DNA from: Planctomycetota bacterium
GTDB taxonomy: Bacteria; Planctomycetota; UBA11346
NCBI GenBank assembly: GCA_038213805.1
Contig: JBBQSO010000070.1
Span: forward strand, 1 to 27,854
Length of the DNA: 27,854 bases
Direction of reading: 5' to 3'
In this document: positions 3,054 to 8,763 of the stretch, one piece after another
Numbering within the stretch: position 1 is the first letter of the stretch
How the letters are laid out: every line of letters begins with the position of its first letter
Translations under genes and position numbers: made by a program
Notes under the pieces: model-generated
What the model was told of the DNA's origin: nothing
The model's database searches: none
What the model saw: only the letters and a program-made list of their open reading frames with translations

Positions 3054-4001
3054 GTGACCAAAAACCCCGAGCGCGCACCACGTCGCCACCACGTCGCCAT
3101 CTCTGGCTCGACCATCGGCACTGGTGATCCGGGCCAAGCTCTGGTGGGCCAGTCCGCCGAGCCGGGTAAGAATGTCTCAACGGGATGTTCCGTCCCTGGG
3201 AGCGCCGAGCCCCAGCTCGGCTCTTCGGGACAGCCGGACCCGAGCCGAGCTGGGGCTCGGCGCTCCCAGGAAAGGCACGCGCGCCAGCGAGATTTTCAGG
3301 GGCCATGGTATTCGCGGGGATATTTGCCCCATTTTGATTCGAAAGGCGTGATTCAATCAATCACCTTTCGACTCGGCGATTCTCTACCACAAGAGAAACT
3401 CCGCCTGCTTGAGCAGGTGATCGCTCATCTTCCCCAGGATGAGCAGGGTATGGAACGTCGGAAGCAGATAGAGCACTGGCTTGATGCGGGCATGGGTTGC
3501 TGCGCTTTACGCCATACGTCCTGCGCTGAGATCATGCAGGACACCTTGCAGCGGTTCGATGGTGAGCGGTACCGTTTGCTGGCGTGGTGCATCATGCCGA
3601 ATCATGTCCATGTGCTGATCAAACCGACTTGGTCATTGGGGAAGATCGTCCAATCGTGGAAATCTTTCACTGGACGGTGGGCATTGGCGCACGCTGCCGA
3701 GCTGGGGCTTAGCGCTCCCAGGGGAGGTGATTCCAGGATTGGCTTCTGGATGCGGGAGTACTGGGACCGACTTATTCGCGATGAGCCGCACTATCTTCGT
3801 ACCATTGCATACATTCATCAAAACCCGGTGGCGGCTGGGCTGTGTCGGAATCCGCATGAGTGGCGCTGGTCGAGCGCCTTTCGTGGGGGCGCCCGTCCTG
3901 GGAGCGCCCGTCCTGGGAGCGCCGAGCCCCAGCTCGGCTCTCAATCAAAAAAGACTGCCGAGCTGGGGCTCGGCGCTCCCAGGGGGCACCAACCGAACTG
4001 A
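3054..4001 (+). CDS. REP-associated tyrosine transposase (RAYT/TnpA-REP, Y1 HUH endonuclease)
   Basis: [32 protein letters not shown] (HUH), [29 protein letters not shown] (catalytic Tyr), WRWSS; REP doublets at both ends; start codon uncertain. Confidence 0.92.
3195..3270. repeat. REP doublet (REPIN-like), 5' side of RAYT
   Basis: 29-bp perfect inverted pair CCTGGGAGCGCCGAGCCCCAGCTCGGCTC (3195-3223) and its reverse complement (3242-3270); each copy holds a GCCGAGC-CCCA-GCTCGGC hairpin preceded by GGAG. Confidence 0.92.
3696..3722 (-). repeat. Single REP copy inside the RAYT catalytic domain
   Basis: GCCGAGCTGGGGCTTAGCGCTCCCAGG, 2 mismatches to the consensus; translated as AELGLSAPR. Confidence 0.88.
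3885..3983. repeat. REP doublet at the RAYT 3' end, preceded by 15-bp tandem partial copies
   Basis: Copies at 3912-3940 and 3957-3983 (inverted); GGG(G/A)GCGCCCGTCCT twice at 3885-3914. Confidence 0.9.
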
Positions 4002-4139
4002 GGTCGCCATTCAGAGCATGAGCAAAAACCTCGAACAGATGCAGCTGAGCGTGAAACCAGTGGCTGCATCTCATAGCTGGCATGCAGTACCAGACAGCGG
4101 GTCATGAGCGATCCCTTAGGGACGTGAGTGCGAGCAGAG

Positions 4140-4210
4140 AGCCCCCGGGAGGCGTCGCACCTCCACCGCCGGTTTACAGGACTGGTGCTCTGCGCTTGAG
4201 CTCCAGGGGC
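4140..4210 (-). tRNA. Degenerate tRNA-Thr(TGT)-like
   Basis: GCCCCTG/CGGGGGC acceptor, GCTC/GAGC D stem, CCAGT-CC TGT AA-ACCGG, GGAGG-TGCGACG-CCTCC; C33, one anticodon-stem mismatch, no encoded CCA. Confidence 0.7.
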
Positions 4211-4305
4211 AAGGATCAAGGAATGGGGAACGTGTCCGCCCGGGCGCGCGCCGTGATGCGGCGCGCGTCCGGGCTCCAGGAAGGCCCGGCCGGAGCCGGG
4301 ATGGA

Positions 4306-4550
4306 CTATTCCCTGAAAGAAGTGGTGGCGGTTGGTGCCGTCGAAGCGGCCGCCTCTCAGGCAGCAGTCCCTGAACAGACGCTGCGAGCCACAGGGGCAC
4401 AGGTCCTTGCGGCCGAGCCGCTCGATCAGGTCCTTGTCGCCATGGACGGTGCGCAGCCCGCGTTTCACCTTGGTTTCCGACGGGAAACCGTGGCGGCGCT
4501 TGCTACTGGTGGTGAAAGGAGGGTTCGTCGGGGAAGTGATCGGTTGCCAT
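4306..4550 (-). CDS. Small SEC-C (CPCGS..F..CC) zinc-binding protein, apparently split by two +1 frameshifts
   Basis: Core frame reads [63 protein letters not shown]. The RBS (GGAGG 4555-4559) and ATG (4550) lie in another frame, and the nearest stop TAG (4306-4308) lies in a third frame. Confidence 0.75.
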
Positions 4551-4628
4551 ACGGCCTCCAGGTTTATGGGGAACGAGTCGCGAGGTGCGAGAGAGGACTC
4601 AGGGAGTCAACCGACGCCGAAAAAGGCG

Positions 4629-4707
4629 TGGTCCTCGCGGTGGGAGTCGAACCCACATGGGACCATTACGGTTTCGACCGTTTATAAGACGGAGCCGCTA
4701 CGCGAGG
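4629..4707 (-). tRNA. D-armless tRNA-Ile(TAT)-like with a long variable region
   Basis: Perfect acceptor CCTCGCG/CGCGAGG plus A-CCA; T arm GTGGG-TTCGACT-CCCAC; CCGT-CT TAT AA-ACGG; only TAGCGGC in place of the D arm; about 20-nt variable region. Confidence 0.75.
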
Positions 4708-4881
4708 TCAGGGGACCTGCGTAGCGGCTATTCGCCGGGCCTTGGCGCGGCGGGGGTGCCGCTTGGCGCCAGGGGCGGCGGGGCCGTGGCATGCCGCCTC
4801 GCGGAGGTACCAGTCGGCGTGCGCACGCAGCCGGGGGTAGTCCTTCAGCGGAAGGTCGTGGGTGATGGGGATGCGGATCAT
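4708..4881 (-). CDS. Small basic hypothetical protein (57 aa) inside the tRNA array
   Basis: AGGAG (4890-4894) upstream of ATG 4881; MIRIPITHDLPLKDYPRLRAHADWYLREAACHGPAAPGAKRHPRRAKARRIAATQVP*; the stop abuts the tRNA 5' end. Confidence 0.6.
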   Translation of the reverse strand: MIRIPITHDLPLKDYPRLRAHADWYLREAACHGPAAPGAKRHPRRAKARRIAATQVP

Positions 4882-4967
4882 GGTTGCTGCTCCTGGGATG
4901 GGTTGCTGATGACGTGGTGGATTCCATGCGGTCGAAACACTCGACCGTCGGTGACCCTGAGAACGAT

Positions 4968-5043
4968 TGGCATCAAGGGAGGGATTCGAACCCCCGGCCG
5001 CCGCGTTCGAAGCGCGGTGCTCTTCCGACTGAGCTACCTCGAT
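4968..5043 (-). tRNA. tRNA-Arg(TCG)
   Basis: ATCGAGG/CCTTGAT-G-CCA; D loop AGTCGGAA (A20); CCGCG-CT TCG AA-CGCGG; TTCGAAT T loop. Confidence 0.93.
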
Positions 5044-5046
5044 AGC

Positions 5047-5120
5047 TGGACCCCGAGCCGGGATTCGGACCCGGATCTGCACGCTGGCGGCGTGCCGTCC
5101 TGCCATTGAACGACACGGGG
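5047..5120 (-). tRNA. tRNA-Gly(GCC), atypical (C33, C55)
   Basis: CCCCGTG/CTCGGGG-T-CCA (U73); GCACG-CC GCC AG-CGTGC; CCGGG-TCCGAAT-CCCGG. Confidence 0.8.
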
Positions 5121-5139
5121 AACACAGACGTGGCGCGGG

Positions 5140-5211
5140 CACCACCGGGAGGAATCGAACCTCCGTCAGCGGATTTGGAATCCACGGCCCTGGCCATTGG
5201 ACGACAGTGGC
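5140..5211 (-). tRNA. tRNA-Trp(CCA)
   Basis: GCCACTG/CGGTGGT-G; GTGGA-TT CCA AA-TCCGC; GGAGG-TTCGATT-CCTCC; no encoded CCA end. Confidence 0.88.
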
Positions 5212-5320
5212 AAAAAAAAGACCTCTGCGATCGCGCTGTCAGTGCGCATGAGCGCCGGTCTGCCGGTCGCCGTGATCGCTGCTCTGGCATCTTCCGCCGA
5301 GGTCAAACGGGGAGGATTGA

Positions 5321-5392
5321 TGGGGTGCCCGGGAATCGAACCTGGTTCACTCGCTTAAAAGGCGAATGCATCGCCACCTATGCTTGCACCCC
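5321..5392 (-). tRNA. tRNA-Lys(TTT)
   Basis: GGGGTGC/GCACCCC-A; GCAT/ATGC D stem; TCGC-CT TTT AA-GCGA; CCAGG-TTCGATT-CCCGG. Confidence 0.87.
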
Positions 5393-5460
5393 GCAAGGCG
5401 AGGCCGGCGTGGAAGGGTCTGCCGCAGCACGTTGGCCGCTTCCGCATGGATCGAAGACGA

Positions 5461-5543
5461 TGGACACGTCGGGTGGAGTCCGACCACGAGCCGGCAGGGT
5501 TGCGGCCTGCCCCGTCCGCGGGACGGTCGATGGCTCCGACGTG
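5461..5543 (-). tRNA. Non-canonical tRNA-Cys(GCA)-like RNA (8-bp acceptor / 4-bp T stem)
   Basis: CACGTCGG/CCGACGTG-T-CCA; GGCAGG-CC GCA AC-CCTGCC; GTGG-TCGGACT-CCAC; 6-bp hairpin in the D position. Confidence 0.65.
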
Positions 5544-5546
5544 AGG

Positions 5547-5621
5547 TGGCGCCCCCAGCGGGAATCGCACCCGCGTTCCCAGATCGACAATCTGGTGTCC
5601 TGGCTGCTGGACGATGGAAGC
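5547..5621 (-). tRNA. tRNA-Asp(GTC)
   Basis: GCTTCCA/TGGGGGC-G-CCA; CCAGA-TT GTC GA-TCTGG; GCGGG-TGCGATT-CCCGC. Confidence 0.88.
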
Positions 5622-5627
5622 ATGGAG

Positions 5628-5700
5628 TAGCGGGTGTGGGACTTGCACCCACCTGCATGGCTTATGAGGCCAGACTGGAACTGTCTCCAGCGAACCCGCG
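5628..5700 (-). tRNA. tRNA-Met(CAT), initiator-like (C1 mismatched with position 72)
   Basis: CGCGGGT/ACCCGCT-A; TGGC-CT CAT AA-GCCA; GTGGG-TGCAAGT-CCCAC; lacks the canonical three consecutive G-C anticodon-stem pairs. Confidence 0.78.
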
Positions 5701-5911
5701 AGGTGAAACGTGGTGATCGCAACAAGCGATCACCGGAGAAAACGGCTGCTGGTCGGGGACTCCGACGACCTGGATTCAGTCAGTCGCGCTCATCAAAGAG
5801 GAGACTACCAGGCTTGAGACAGATCTGATCAGAACGCGTAACGTTCCTGCAGCAGCCGAAAAGAAGTGAACGCATCTGCCCGTCGGCGCAGCCGACCCAG
5901 CCAGTCCTGGC

Positions 5912-6021
5912 GTAGGGGGCAGCGCCGTAGGCGCGTTCGTTGGGGGAGGCCGCCTGATGCGACTCCCCCAACAAAAAGCTCGTTGGGGGAGGCCGCCTGA
6001 TGCGGCTCCCCCAACAAAAAG
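5912..6021. repeat. Tandem palindromic repeat (two 42-bp units, period 43) with a GTAG-headed leader; second repeat family
   Basis: TCGTTGGGGGAGGCCGCCTGATGCG(A/G)CTCCCCCAACAAAAAG at 5937-5978 and 5980-6021; 10-bp stem GTTGGGGGAG/CTCCCCCAAC; related copy at 7385-7450. Confidence 0.9.
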
Positions 6022-6091
6022 GACAAGGTCGGATTCGAACCGACGGCCTTCCGGGTGCAAACCGGGAGCTCTTCCGCTGAGCTACGTGCCC
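6021..6091 (-). tRNA. tRNA-Ala(TGC); 3' end abutted by the repeat
   Basis: GGGCACG/CTTGTCC with G3-U70; CCGG-TT TGC AC-CCGG; GTCGG-TTCGAAT-CCGAC; A73-CCA replaced by the repeat's T run. Confidence 0.88.
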
Positions 6092-6173
6092 ATGACCCGC
6101 CGCGCGAACGCGGCGGTGATGATGTCTGCTACGAGGACCGGTTGTCAAAAAACGGGAAGAAGAGGATGCCGGT

Positions 6174-6208
6174 AAAACGAAGAACCCCGGCGGGTTAGGC
6201 CGGGGTTC
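6174..6208 (-). terminator. Intrinsic terminator / attenuator of array unit 2
   Basis: 10-bp perfect stem GAACCCCGGC/GCCGGGGTTC, 7-nt loop, followed by TTCGTTTT on the minus strand. Confidence 0.8.
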
Positions 6209-6233
6209 AGGAATGCGCTGGCAGGACGTCGTC

Positions 6234-6473
6234 CTAGCGTGGCATTCGGGATTCCCCGGTGGTGGTAAGCTGATCGCACGCGTCATTCACAACGCTTCTG
6301 GCGGACTTTATGCGGACGTGCGCACAACCATCCGCTTCGACCACGGACCAGTCCCGCGACCGCGGCTGCGTCTGCAGTGCTGGCATCATCTTGGATTTGG
6401 TTGTGGCGGGACTGGACATGGACGGCGCAGCTCCTGAAAGGAAGGTGAACGGGATGGCGATGGTTTGGTTCAT
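6234..6473 (-). CDS. Putative leader ORF of unit 2 (79 aa; alternative RBS-linked start at 6419)
   Basis: ATG 40 nt downstream of TTGACA; stop about 25 nt before the terminator; no recognisable domain. Confidence 0.4.
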   Translation of the reverse strand: MNQTIAIPFTFLSGAAPSMSSPATTKSKMMPALQTQPRSRDWSVVEADGCAHVRIKSARSVVNDACDQLTTTGESRMPR

Positions 6474-6513
6474 CGCGGTGTGGAATACATAACCGGCATC
6501 AAATGAGTGTCAA
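6474..6513 (-). promoter_or_regulatory. Sigma70-like promoter P2 (internal to the array)
   Basis: Perfect TTGACA (6508-6513), then TATGTATT in the -10 region, in an AT-rich patch. Confidence 0.6.
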
Positions 6514-6600
6514 CAGGGAAAATGCCTGAAAAAACGGGATGCGGGCGACGTGAAGCATAGGAGATGTGATTCCTGGCGCGAGCTGCGCGCCGCAAGGTCC

Positions 6601-6672
6601 TGCTCCAACAGGGAATCGAACCCTGCTTCCCGGATTGAAATTCCGGAATCCTGGCCACTGGACGATTTGAGC
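6601..6672 (-). tRNA. tRNA-Glu(TTC)
   Basis: GCTCAAA/TTGGAGC-A (1 mismatch); CCGGA-AT TTC AA-TCCGG; CAGGG-TTCGATT-CCCTG. Confidence 0.87.
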
Positions 6673-6703
6673 GTGAACGCGGAACATGGATGAGAATGCA
6701 GAG

Positions 6704-6779
6704 TGGCTGGCAGGGCCGGATTCGAACCAGCATAATCCCGATTAACAATCGGGCGCTCGACCAGTTGAGCTACCTGCCA
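6704..6779 (-). tRNA. tRNA-Asn(GTT)
   Basis: TGGCAGG/CCTGCCA-G-CCA (U1-A72, G73); CCCGA-TT GTT AA-TCGGG; TTCGAAT. Confidence 0.93.
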
Positions 6780-6788
6780 ATGTGGACC

Positions 6789-6895
6789 TGGTGCCTGGCC
6801 GTGGAGTCGCGACGGGCCGCAGGCCCTAGTCCCTTGCGGAAACCAGGAGCCTTCCGGACCAGAACCGGACGTTCTACCGATTGAACTACCCGTGA
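6789..6895 (-). pseudogene. Interrupted, chimeric tRNA-Gln(CTG)
   Basis: Intact 5' part (TCACGGG, D arm, TCCGG-TT CTG GT-CCGGA, CCTGG-TT), then a 31-nt insert (6810-6840), then CGACT-CCACG-GCCAGGC-A-CCA, which does not pair with the Gln 5' strand. Confidence 0.75.
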
Positions 6896-6902
6896 GCGTG
6901 AA

Positions 6903-6976
6903 TGGTTGGAGGTATGGGAATCGCACCCATGTCTCGGGAATCACAGACCCGTATGCTGTTACTGCACCAACCTCCA
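6903..6976 (-). tRNA. tRNA with GTG (His) anticodon and atypical acceptor (A73, no G-1)
   Basis: TGGAGGT/ACCTCCA-A-CCA; CGGG-T CT GTG AT T-CCCG; ATGGG-TGCGATT-CCCAT. Confidence 0.82.
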
Positions 6977-6985
6977 AAGAAAATA

Positions 6986-7062
6986 TGGTCGGAACGGCGG
7001 GACTTGGACCCGCGACCTCTGCTGCCCAAGAGCAGCGCTCTGCTGGACTGAGCTACGTTCCG
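6986..7062 (-). tRNA. tRNA-Pro(TGG)
   Basis: CGGAACG/CGTTCCG-A-CCA (C1-G72, A73); CTGCT-CT TGG GC-AGCAG; T loop TCCAAGT. Confidence 0.9.
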
Positions 7063-7074
7063 GAATGGTGAGAC

Positions 7075-7149
7075 TGGTCCCCGACCGTGGGATCGGACCA
7101 CGGACCTTCCGCCTGTCGTGCGGACGCTCTGCCGCTGAGCTAGCCGGGG
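7075..7149 (-). tRNA. tRNA-Val(GAC), atypical (C33, C55)
   Basis: CCCCGGC/GTCGGGG-A-CCA; TCCGC-AC GAC AG-GCGGA; CGTGG-TCCGATC-CCACG. Confidence 0.85.
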
Positions 7150-7152
7150 AGA

Positions 7153-7224
7153 TGCGCGCGGATGGAGTCGAACCACCGGCCTTCCGCGTATCAGACGGAC
7201 GCTCCACCACTGAGCTACGCGCGC
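7153..7224 (-). tRNA. tRNA-Ile(GAT)
   Basis: GCGCGCG/CGCGCGC-A; TCCGT-CT GAT AC-GCGGA; GGTGG-TTCGACT-CCATC. Confidence 0.92.
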
Positions 7225-7236
7225 TGAAATCAAAAC

Positions 7237-7308
7237 CTGGCTCGGATGGATTCGAACCATCGACTTCCTCCTTCGCAGAGAGGTGCTCTTCCGCTGAACT
7301 ACGAGCCA
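7237..7308 (-). tRNA. tRNA-Arg(GCG)
   Basis: TGGCTCG/CGAGCCA-G; D loop AGCGGAA (A20); CCTCT-CT GCG AA-GGAGG; GATGG-TTCGAAT-CCATC. Confidence 0.9.
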
Positions 7309-7812: not shown

Positions 7813-8763
7813 ATGTCAACTGACCACCTCCCGCTGCCCGACATCCTCCGCGGCCTGATCCTTGCGGCTGGCCTCAGCCAGCAGGAGACGGCGCTGCGCT
7901 CCGGCATCAGCCCGGGTTCGGTTGCGGCGTTGTGCGTGCGCATCCCCAAGCCCTTGCTCACCTGGTTGCGCCTGGTCGCGGCGCTCGGCGGGCGCGTGGG
8001 CGTCGCCTGGCAGGATCGCACGTGGACGGTGCCGATGCCGAAGATCGCGGCGCCGGTGCTGGAACGCGAATGGGCGTCGTGGCGCACCCGGCGCATGGTC
8101 ACCACCATCAACCACCTGCGTTCCGCCGCGCCCAAGACCAAGCGCGCGCTGCTTGAGGAGCGCGCGCGCACCTATGCCGCCAACGAGGAGGCGCGCCTGC
8201 GTCAGCGGCTCGGCGAGCTCAAGAGCGCGACCAAGGCCTTTGCCGGTGCGCACCGCAGCCAGGGGCTGCGCGTCGCGCTGCGCCTGATCGCGACCAGGAT
8301 CGGCCTGCGCGCCGAAGAGCTCACCCTGCTCTCTGGCGCCAGTCTTTCCGCCTGTCAGCTCGCCCTGGGCGAGCTGCACGACGGCCGGCTCGCGACCATG
8401 CACCGGCTGTGCTCTGCGCTCGGCGCGCGCCTCGAGATCGCGCTGCCCGCCGGCAGCATCGCGATCGGCTTCTGCCCGCCCGGTGATTGGCGTCCGGGCA
8501 TGGCCGAAACGGCGGCCGAGGGCGAGGCCGACGCGCCGAGCGCGCGTACGCCCAAGGATAACCAGAACCGCAGCAGTCTAGGCAGCGCCGAGATGCTGGC
8601 GCTCTTCGACCAGGGCCTGTCCATCGGCGCCATCGCCCGCCAAGCCGGCGTCAGCCGCCAGCGCGTGCACAAGCTGGCAATGGACAACGGCCGCACGCAG
8701 CGCCGGCAGGCGGTACGCGAGCAGCGCGTCGCGAGCGGTCGGGAGCTGCTGGGCGTATCCTAG
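7813..8763 (+). CDS. Multi-HTH DNA-binding protein (two XRE-like units and a C-terminal HTH)
   Basis: AAGLSQQETALRSGISPGSV..LVAALGGRV; IGLRAEELTLLSGASLSA..TMHRLCSALGARLEI; DQGLSIGAIARQAGVSRQRVHKL. Confidence 0.8.
   Translation: MSTDHLPLPDILRGLILAAGLSQQETALRSGISPGSVAALCVRIPKPLLTWLRLVAALGGRVGVAWQDRTWTVPMPKIAAPVLEREWASWRTRRMVTTINHLRSAAPKTKRALLEERARTYAANEEARLRQRLGELKSATKAFAGAHRSQGLRVALRLIATRIGLRAEELTLLSGASLSACQLALGELHDGRLATMHRLCSALGARLEIALPAGSIAIGFCPPGDWRPGMAETAAEGEADAPSARTPKDNQNRSSLGSAEMLALFDQGLSIGAIARQAGVSRQRVHKLAMDNGRTQRRQAVREQRVASGRELLGVS

Follow-up and report, generated by a model that had tools for sequence, protein, structure and literature searches.

The SEC-C mini-gene described here lies on the minus strand of a 27,854-nucleotide (nt) stretch of DNA from a Planctomycetota bacterium (GTDB lineage UBA11346; assembly GCA_038213805.1, contig JBBQSO010000070.1, positions 1 to 27,854), which we call the window. 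We interpret it as an intact member of a widespread family of genes of about 80 codons, in which full-length decoding would depend on programmed +1 ribosomal slippage of tRNA-Phe at UUU followed by a pyrimidine (UUU_Y, or TTT_Y in DNA), and we put the probability of this interpretation at about three in four. The best reading of the aligned sequences is that each gene has one to three such sites, and that the encoded product would be a basic N-terminal segment joined to a SEC-C zinc knuckle. The original prediction, made from the letters of the window alone, proposed that this gene needs two +1 shifts, both at UUU_C; breaks of this kind recur in all six close relatives that we found and in the wider family.

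Layout of the mini-gene

Reading from the 5' end, the gene opens with a Shine-Dalgarno (SD) word, GGAGG (4555–4559), a spacer CCGT (4554–4551) and an ATG (4550–4548). An SD-like word also stands upstream of the leader ATG in most relatives. The ATG and the 11 codons after it form a leader in frame 0 (4515–4550), which is acidic and rich in His and ends on a Phe codon, TTT. This codon is part of the first shift site, TCC_TTT_C (site A, 4514–4520), where tRNA-Phe is proposed to move from UUU to UUC, after which ACC is read; without the shift, 15 codons are read before a frame-0 stop, TAG (4503–4505). The body follows in the +1 frame (4316–4513); it begins with a basic N-terminal region (SKRR..GFPSE..VKRG), goes on with the zinc knuckle and closes with a conserved tail that runs to Phe-Phe. 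The SEC-C metal-binding motif (CPCGS...CC, 4355–4411, residues 57–75 of the translation P0001) matches Pfam PF02810 with 26.4 bits against a gathering cut-off of 20.4 (E 6e-6). The frame that carries it is open from upstream, and its earliest ATG, GTG or TTG is a GTG at 4468, which lies past a coding-like stretch, on its downstream side. At the end of the body, TTC_TTT_C (site E, 4315–4321) leads to a tail in a second +1 frame, AGG GAA TAG (Arg-Glu-stop, 4306–4314). Without a slip at site E the frame continues to 3941, through the tRNA at 4210–4140 (open reading frame, ORF, 3941–4468). When TTTC is read as a single step twice (F12 and F78), the result is an 80-residue product (P0002). The T runs at both sites are three bases long (T3), and the 0-frame codons that follow sites A and E are sense codons, CAC and CAG. 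The original prediction had placed the SD word, the ATG, the leader stop, the SEC-C frame and both TTT_C sites on the minus strand, and its coordinates and frames are correct base for base.

The product does not belong to the full-length YchJ or YecA families of NCBIfam (best score 18.2 bits, with cut-offs of 140–158); the terminal motif alone matches. There is no second copy in the genome from which the window comes, where other hits are weak SEC-C motif matches, for example to SecA-type proteins. AlphaFold2, run on an uninterrupted relative (P0004) with 84 aligned sequences, gave a mean predicted local distance difference test (pLDDT) of 62 and a predicted template modelling score (pTM) of 0.40, too weak for a fold search.

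Recurrence of the breaks and spread of the family

Searching 41 related genomes with the body frame gave six strong matches: four came from the same genus, of which ten other genomes were included, and two from the same family. Four of these six were matched as two pieces in different frames. When the DNA of seven loci is aligned, the SD word and the ATG are present in all, as is a short acidic leader with Pro-(Ser/Cys)-Phe at its end, and the final Phe is written TTT_C except in one locus, which has TTT_T GA. Differences in the middle segment fall mostly at third codon positions, and after the final Phe-Phe the +1 frame gives Arg-Glu/Asp-stop, with TAG in five loci and TGA in two. Four of the seven loci need an extra +1 step at AAA_A or AAG_G, at a place where the window copy is in frame. 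The alignment of homologues at the nucleotide level that the original prediction had called for thus reveals recurrent breaks at TTT_C; homologues are not uniformly uninterrupted, and the reading as a pseudogene that uniform ORFs would have favoured did not hold.

For the wider family, a pattern scan over one genome per species returned at least 600 stretches; tblastn confirmed at least 542 of them, and we kept the 80 best. We studied 87 loci with a dynamic-programming alignment that is aware of frameshifts and allows +1, +2 and -1 steps, using as reference a locus with an uninterrupted body (L034). Of these loci, 78 scored at least 200, eight lacked the anchor motif and one was badly aligned; without two identical duplicates, the 78 become 76 distinct loci. 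The window body aligns to the reference with a score of 247, covering positions 1–70. The nine loci set aside were run again from their match coordinates, and all nine have TTT_Y at the leader junction; in eight the body also calls for one or more internal +1 steps at a T run, and L028 needs none.

Among the best 80 of the at least 542 loci, most carriers are Planctomycetota, the phylum in which the window also has its nearest public relatives, and others belong to Acidobacteriota, Verrucomicrobiota, Cyanobacteria, Gemmatimonadota, several classes of Proteobacteria and further groups. Five are isolate genomes: Stieleria magnilauensis TBK1r (L061), Acidobacteriaceae KBS 96 (L050), Caulobacter vibrioides OR37 (L079), Massilia pinisoli JCM 31316 (L069) and Andreprevotia chitinilytica DSM 18519 (L098). 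The distribution within Planctomycetota is patchy, with matches at E ≤1e-8 in 20 of 301 sampled genomes and in 13 of 190 high-quality genomes. None of 50,697 phage records matched, and two of 72,556 plasmid records did, both being megaplasmids of Ca. Manganitrophus on which the gene is unannotated. Database entries hold only pieces of the gene, often a 55-residue fragment called a YecA or SEC-C protein, or nothing at all. In our searches of the literature, no description of the SEC-C mini-gene family or of its frameshifts turned up, and the main text of the GeneTack survey (PMC3711429) makes no mention of SEC-C, YecA, UUU or zinc.

A common rule for the shift sites

Across the family the breaks fall at the same five places, the leader junction A and four internal sites B, C, D and E, and almost all are +1. 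TTT_Y marks the leader junction in 71 of the 76 distinct loci, and 65 of the 76 have an ATG leader of at most 30 codons that lies one +1 step from the body frame and ends with Phe at TTT_Y. The junction reads TTT_CGA, with an Arg codon after the Phe, in 49 of the 71. Loci with T6–T8 runs at site A enter the body by two +1 steps or by one -1 step. Site B, after VKRG..G.K, is used in four loci, at AAA_A or, in one locus (L010), AAG_G. Counted over the 78 loci, with duplicates included, site C (R-F/K before the second Cys pair) has 14 events, all at TTT_Y; site D (G-x-F/D-G) has 51, of which 43 are at TTT_Y; and site E (F/R-E-stop) has 62, again all at TTT_Y. Seven of the eight other events at site D have CTT_T or CTT_C available, and one is without a clear site. 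Of these sites, AAG_G is the only one that does not allow the same tRNA to pair again after a +1 move.

We moved each event to the nearest TTT_Y within its stop-free window and then counted, for the 76 distinct loci, the in-frame Phe codons of the body. TTT followed by C or T was a shift site 115 times and was read normally eight times; TTT followed by A or G was never a shift site and was read normally 34 times, and TTC was never a shift site in 195 occurrences. A further 13 shifts stayed at codons other than TTT. In one locus (L068) a +1 step at TTT_C is followed about ten codons later by a -1 step, the sole -1 event in the set, and this pair may be a compensated indel. With the leader junction included, eight loci have one TTT_Y site, 24 have two and 44 have three, for a total of 188 sites, of which 143 lie in T3–T4 runs and 42 in T6–T8 runs.

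After site E, the +1 frame stops within one to four codons in 59 of 60 loci, while the 0 frame stops at once in 27 loci and otherwise continues, in some for more than 45 codons. T was the extra base after UUU in two of 16 cases where TAA results, in 47 of 105 with TGA and in 26 of 39 with TAG, all counted over loci that are not independent, and the rarity of TAA after UUU fits slippage in competition with termination. SD-like 5-mers upstream of the sites are rare (1 of 71 contexts at site A, 3 of 43 at site D and 0 of 60 at site E). SD-like 4-mers occur in 22 of 43 shifted contexts at site D versus 5 of 23 unshifted ones, and are mostly forced by the coding sequence.

Selection in each segment and frame

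In the 76 distinct loci, mean entropy is higher at the third codon position than at the other two in every segment, each taken in its own frame. For codon positions 1, 2 and 3, the values were 0.50, 0.44 and 1.51 up to site C; 0.82, 0.71 and 1.42 from site C to site D; 0.77, 0.64 and 1.39 from site D to site E; and 0.43, 0.12 and 1.71 in the two-codon tail. This pattern points to purifying selection at the protein level in the frames both upstream and downstream of the breaks. Each of the junctions is in frame somewhere in the family: 62 loci are in frame at site C, 23 at site D and 15 at site E and the tail. The whole body is in frame in the reference L034, and a database protein (P0005) has the leader fused in frame. 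As judged from the alignments, the shift site is conserved among diverged homologues, as expected for programmed frameshifting.

The window sequence itself is matched by assembled contigs. Contigs from two runs of one study, probably the source of the assembly, are identical to it, and a contig from a second study that covers 4250–4562 differs by 25 substitutions and no gaps and keeps both shift sites. Taken together, the fixed positions of the breaks, the signs of selection, the in-frame members and the agreement among contigs exclude decay and sequencing error.

Structured RNA downstream of the stop codon

Directly after the gene, a structured RNA of two hairpins closed by a GUCC/GGAC helix (4234–4306, minus strand, predicted by RNAalifold) begins at the last base of the stop codon. 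The two hairpins had been noted from the sequence of the window alone and are borne out by covariation: in five array-type loci (the window and its four nearest array relatives), eight of 24 pairs show compensatory changes, far above chance. Structure at this place is common in the family as well. The 60 nt from the stop codon (the stop and 57 nt after it) fold with z < -2 relative to shuffled sequences in 45 of 70 loci, and a hairpin of -12 kcal/mol or stronger is found in 65 of 70, starting at most 12 nt after the stop in 49 of the 65. A plain intrinsic terminator was rejected as an explanation for most of these hairpins, since at least four T in the next 8 nt follow only 16 of the 65.

Genomic context

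The mini-gene sits near the 3' end of a tRNA gene array, flanked by a degenerate tRNA-like element and, on the downstream side, by an atypical tRNA-Thr(UGU). Upstream lie 13 tRNA genes (4968–7308, minus strand; ARAGORN and Rfam), and the array as a whole has 14 tRNA genes in about 3.2 kb, 13 of them called by ARAGORN and one by Rfam. A tRNA array unit as defined by Tran et al., in the part of PMC4758250 drawn on here, has at least 20 tRNA genes at no fewer than 2 per kb; the window array reaches this density and falls short of this number. Its last gene, the tRNA-Thr(UGU) (4140–4210, minus strand; Rfam RF00005, 42.3 bits), was missed by ARAGORN, which calls the homologous gene in loci L006–L009. 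It has an anticodon loop CCUGUAA, with C33 instead of U, and a T loop UGCGACG versus the usual UUCGA type; these odd loops are common to L006–L009. In the window copy, the anticodon stem also contains an A-C mismatch. The degenerate element on the other side (4631–4709, minus strand) has a long variable arm and a sub-threshold match to tRNA-Sec (21 bits, E 0.8). At its place, L008, L009 and L011 carry a tRNA-Thr(CGU); in L008 the T-arm region of this tRNA is enlarged by about 20 nt, an insertion that is absent from its closest homologue, L009. A 58-codon ORF (4708–4882, minus strand) without a Pfam or NCBIfam match precedes the degenerate element, and a hairpin follows the ORF.

The original prediction also hinted at a link between the shifts and the lack of an intact tRNA-Phe in the array, and this link was not supported. 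The genome has a normal tRNA-Phe(GAA) on another contig (C13), related arrays in L010 and L026 carry tRNA-Phe, and most members of the family lie outside arrays. The window array's only candidate is a sub-threshold remnant between tRNA-His and tRNA-Asn (6842–6895, minus strand; 24.5 bits, with a threshold of 29). L010 and L026 have their tRNA-Phe(GAA) at the equivalent place, and the remnant probably represents a truncated tRNA-Phe. A gap in the array holds a 79-codon ORF (6234–6473, minus strand), which may be the "unit-1 leader" for which the original prediction had listed an in-frame TTT_C. Just upstream of the first tRNA of the array, a divergent gene (7813–8763, plus strand) encodes a helix-turn-helix protein that could be an array regulator. 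The other end of the array is abutted by a gene for a transposase associated with repetitive extragenic palindromes (REP-associated tyrosine transposase, 3054–4001, plus strand; NCBIfam, 83.6 bits), with REP-like inverted repeats at its 3' end (about 3900–4000).

Ten distinct loci of the family lie in tRNA arrays. For the 69 non-array loci, we compared the nearest neighbours and further ORFs on the same strand with Pfam, and families of RNA repair were found within about 3 kb in 16 of the 69, with the mini-gene mostly first on its strand. These include RtcB (L098, and L031, where a gene with an RF-1 domain of the PrfH type follows), Hen1 (L051, L065, L081, L099), RNA ligase PF09414 (L040, L060, L066, L082, L085), Thg1-like proteins (L038, L053, L056, L082) and AAA_33 kinase-type proteins (L040, L056, L057, L066, L082, L085), the last together with HD in L040, L057 and L066. 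RlaP and an NIF phosphatase are found near L051, and Ro60 near L090. The order in L031 (2525–4284), with mini-gene, RtcB and RF-1-domain protein, is the layout of the RtcB2-PrfH module of ribosome rescue and repair (PMC9304027). Some loci have neighbours of the defence-island type, such as SIR2 in L105 (CP114562.1) and L038, and a TIR domain with a Schlafen AlbA_2 domain in L076. In two Alcanivoracaceae loci, ARAGORN reports tRNA-like genes with two-base anticodons and six-base loops a few kb upstream of the mini-genes (L029, 628–715; L033, 987–1060).

Proposed mechanism

We propose that a peptidyl-tRNA-Phe, wobble-paired on UUU, would re-pair one base downstream on UUC or UUU, and that decoding would then go on in the new frame. 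The sites fit the classical P-site rule for +1 shifts because the same tRNA pairs one base downstream (UUU to UUY, CUU to UUY, AAA to AAA or AAG), and UUU_Ynn is an established +1-prone site in bacteria, as set out in the cited portion of PMC5009743. The window copy would take two slips, one at TCC_UUU_C after its 12-codon leader and one at UUC_UUU_C two codons before the end. A failure to slip at the first site would lead to a stop after 15 codons, and a failure at the second would send the ribosome through the hairpins and the tRNA.

In such a design, output would be the product of one to three slip probabilities, and would respond steeply to conditions that induce slippage. Candidate triggers are empty A sites after tRNA damage, scarcity of release factor and under-modified tRNA-Phe. 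A hairpin a few bases past the true stop could relay the signal to downstream tRNA or repair genes, in that a terminating ribosome would melt it. Our preferred model is therefore one in which the frequency of slippage would gate the completion of the protein and, through the ribosome that reaches the hairpin, the downstream genes. The link with RNA-repair genes makes it plausible that the gene acts as a sensor of translation damage, and in Anabaena, according to the cited part of PMC8421152, translational stress co-induces long tRNA arrays and rtcB. The original prediction had already suggested a sensor that yields the full-length zinc finger when ribosomes slip. The fullest version of this idea, a damage sensor that counts frameshifts, so that slips at two or three UUU_Y sites melt the hairpin, complete a knuckle that binds ribosomes or RNA, and switch on the repair genes or a spare-tRNA array, is possible but on balance doubtful.

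Weighing the alternatives

Several points weigh against programmed slippage as we propose it. Background slippage at UUU_Y in E. coli is only a few percent, and two or three serial sites would thus give a very small yield unless a stimulator acts; our scan for SD-like words upstream of the shift sites turned up no clear stimulatory element. Normal triplet decoding is needed at eight in-frame TTT_Y codons, most of them in G-F-P. Where T6–T8 runs stand at site A, one -1 slip explains the sequence as well as two +1 slips do. Because the loci are related, there are fewer independent events than the counts suggest. In roughly half of the family, site A is closely followed by an in-frame ATG (consensus ..MSKRR), at which the body could start on its own. 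Finally, we infer the sensor and attenuator parts, and for the latter the scarcity of T-rich stretches after the strong hairpins is a difficulty.

The in-frame ATG is also the starting point of the view that the segments are never joined, in which the leader would be a separate regulatory upstream ORF and the body would start alone or by termination and reinitiation. The truncated forms would then be functional, for example one of 55 residues ending in G-R-F, and the UUU_Y-stop sites would be early-termination brakes or a source of minor isoforms. In several members the TGA of the leader indeed sits a few bases before the body ATG, many database ORFs are exactly 55 residues long, and the zinc knuckle is already complete before site D. 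We nevertheless regard this view as unlikely. The window copy and its kin have no ATG, GTG or TTG before the conserved SKRR..GFPSE, which shows third-position variation; where an ATG is present, the F-E codons upstream of it are conserved in the body frame; and P0005 has the leader fused in frame. Selection at the protein level likewise extends to the segment between sites D and E and to the R-E/D-stop tail, both of which are in frame in other members. Correction at the RNA level, by a polymerase that slips on the T run or by editing that removes one U, would put the messenger RNA in frame, and each TTT_Y site does lie in a T run, 42 of the 188 with six to eight T. RNA polymerase slippage needs long homopolymer runs, and 143 of the 188 sites offer only three or four T. 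On this matter of length, the cited passages of PMC5009743 contain one viral example, a U6 slippage sequence, and name no minimum. Neither the AAG_G site (L010) nor the CTT_C sites fall in homopolymer runs of the skipped base, and the scarcity of TAA next to UUU can be understood only if the 0-frame codon is presented to the ribosome, all of which makes an RNA-level explanation distinctly improbable.

A dedicated tRNA with an enlarged anticodon loop could read UUUC or UUUU as a four-base Phe codon. TTTC taken as one step yields a clean product, and the tRNA array around the window copy includes several odd tRNA-like genes, but we give this idea hardly any credence. ARAGORN finds 59 tRNAs in the window's genome, which is 90% complete; all have three-base anticodons, and the one tRNA-Phe(GAA) is normal. 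The family is moreover mostly found away from arrays, with most of the 87 loci having no tRNA within about 3 kb (ARAGORN). The eight in-frame TTT_Y codons need triplet reading, and Leu CTT_Y and Lys AAA_A sites are also used. An equally slight chance attaches to a decaying pseudogene or an assembly or homopolymer error, the outcome that would be expected if one considered only that gene callers split the mini-gene, that databases hold pieces of it and that the plasmid copy is unannotated. The comparative data contradict this explanation, in that the breaks are specific in position, go in the +1 direction and fall at TTT_Y, selection is seen in every frame segment, and isolate genomes and the contigs of two studies agree.

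Comparison with known systems

Programmed slippage of tRNA-Phe, the reading that we prefer, would be a mechanism of a known kind; as far as we have seen, what is new is the multi-site, obligatory design, the spread across phyla and the company of genes. To our knowledge, few bacterial cellular genes need programmed +1 frameshifting, prfB being the classic case. If our reading is right, the family would be a new and extreme example from many phyla, in which 80 codons can contain as many as three obligatory UUU_Y shifts, and a natural test bed for what determines the rate of +1 slippage at UUU_Y. The association with tRNA arrays and with genes for RtcB, Hen1, RNA ligase, Thg1-like and PrfH-type proteins suggests how cells might detect damaged tRNAs or ribosomes, and if the sensor idea were true, errors of reading frame would be a regulatory input in bacteria. 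For annotation, database entries that are fragmentary or absent would be replaced by the full mini-gene.

The prfB site (CUU_UGA_C) is similar in that a P-site tRNA slips +1 to an overlapping cognate or near-cognate codon beside a weak 0-frame stop, and the prfB frameshift also acts as a sensor. UUU_UGA_C/U is found in many of the mini-genes, at sites A and D, and CUU_U in a few; conversely, UUU_U occurs in a minority of prfB genes (cited part of PMC5009743). The window copy differs in having Phe UUU as its shift codon, not Leu CUU, and in that sense codons follow instead of UGA. The family as a whole lacks a convincing SD-like stimulator, has up to three sites per gene and encodes a product unrelated to release factors. 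The likeness to PA-X of influenza A, pointed out in the original prediction, is apt: site A of the window has the UCC_UUU_C core, with CAC as the next codon, tRNA-Phe would move from UUU to UUC in the same way, and UCC_UUU_CGU is the +1 site named in the title of PMC3498833. PA-X is, however, made from a gene of a eukaryotic virus, with a single site and as a minor extra product, whereas in the mini-gene the shift would be obligatory for the sole full-length product.

The same tetranucleotide rule, with no need of a stop codon, is found at error-prone bacterial UUU_Y sites such as those of argI and the YopN-TyeA fusion of Yersinia, as covered in the cited parts of PMC5009743 and PMC4914553. 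Those are incidental or low-level events at single sites, whereas the sites of the mini-gene are conserved, multiple and apparently required. In Euplotes, +1 frameshifting at AAA_UAA and AAA_UAG is genome-wide and is a property of the whole organism's termination system. The mini-genes resemble Euplotes genes in having several +1 sites per gene, often beside a stop, that are gained and lost among homologues, but the trait is confined to one small gene family across many bacterial phyla.

The pyrBI and trp leaders are ribosome-dependent attenuators, and share with the mini-gene a short ORF whose end is followed within a few bases by a stable hairpin, with the downstream genes beyond it. By analogy, the gate in the mini-gene would be frameshifting instead of the supply of amino acids or nucleotides, and the ORF would itself encode a conserved, folded protein. 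That protein would share the CxCxS...CC zinc or iron knuckle with the C-terminal metal-binding domain of SecA and with YecA and YchJ, and would differ from them in standing alone: its roughly 80 residues would comprise the knuckle and a conserved basic N-terminal part of its own, and no further domain.

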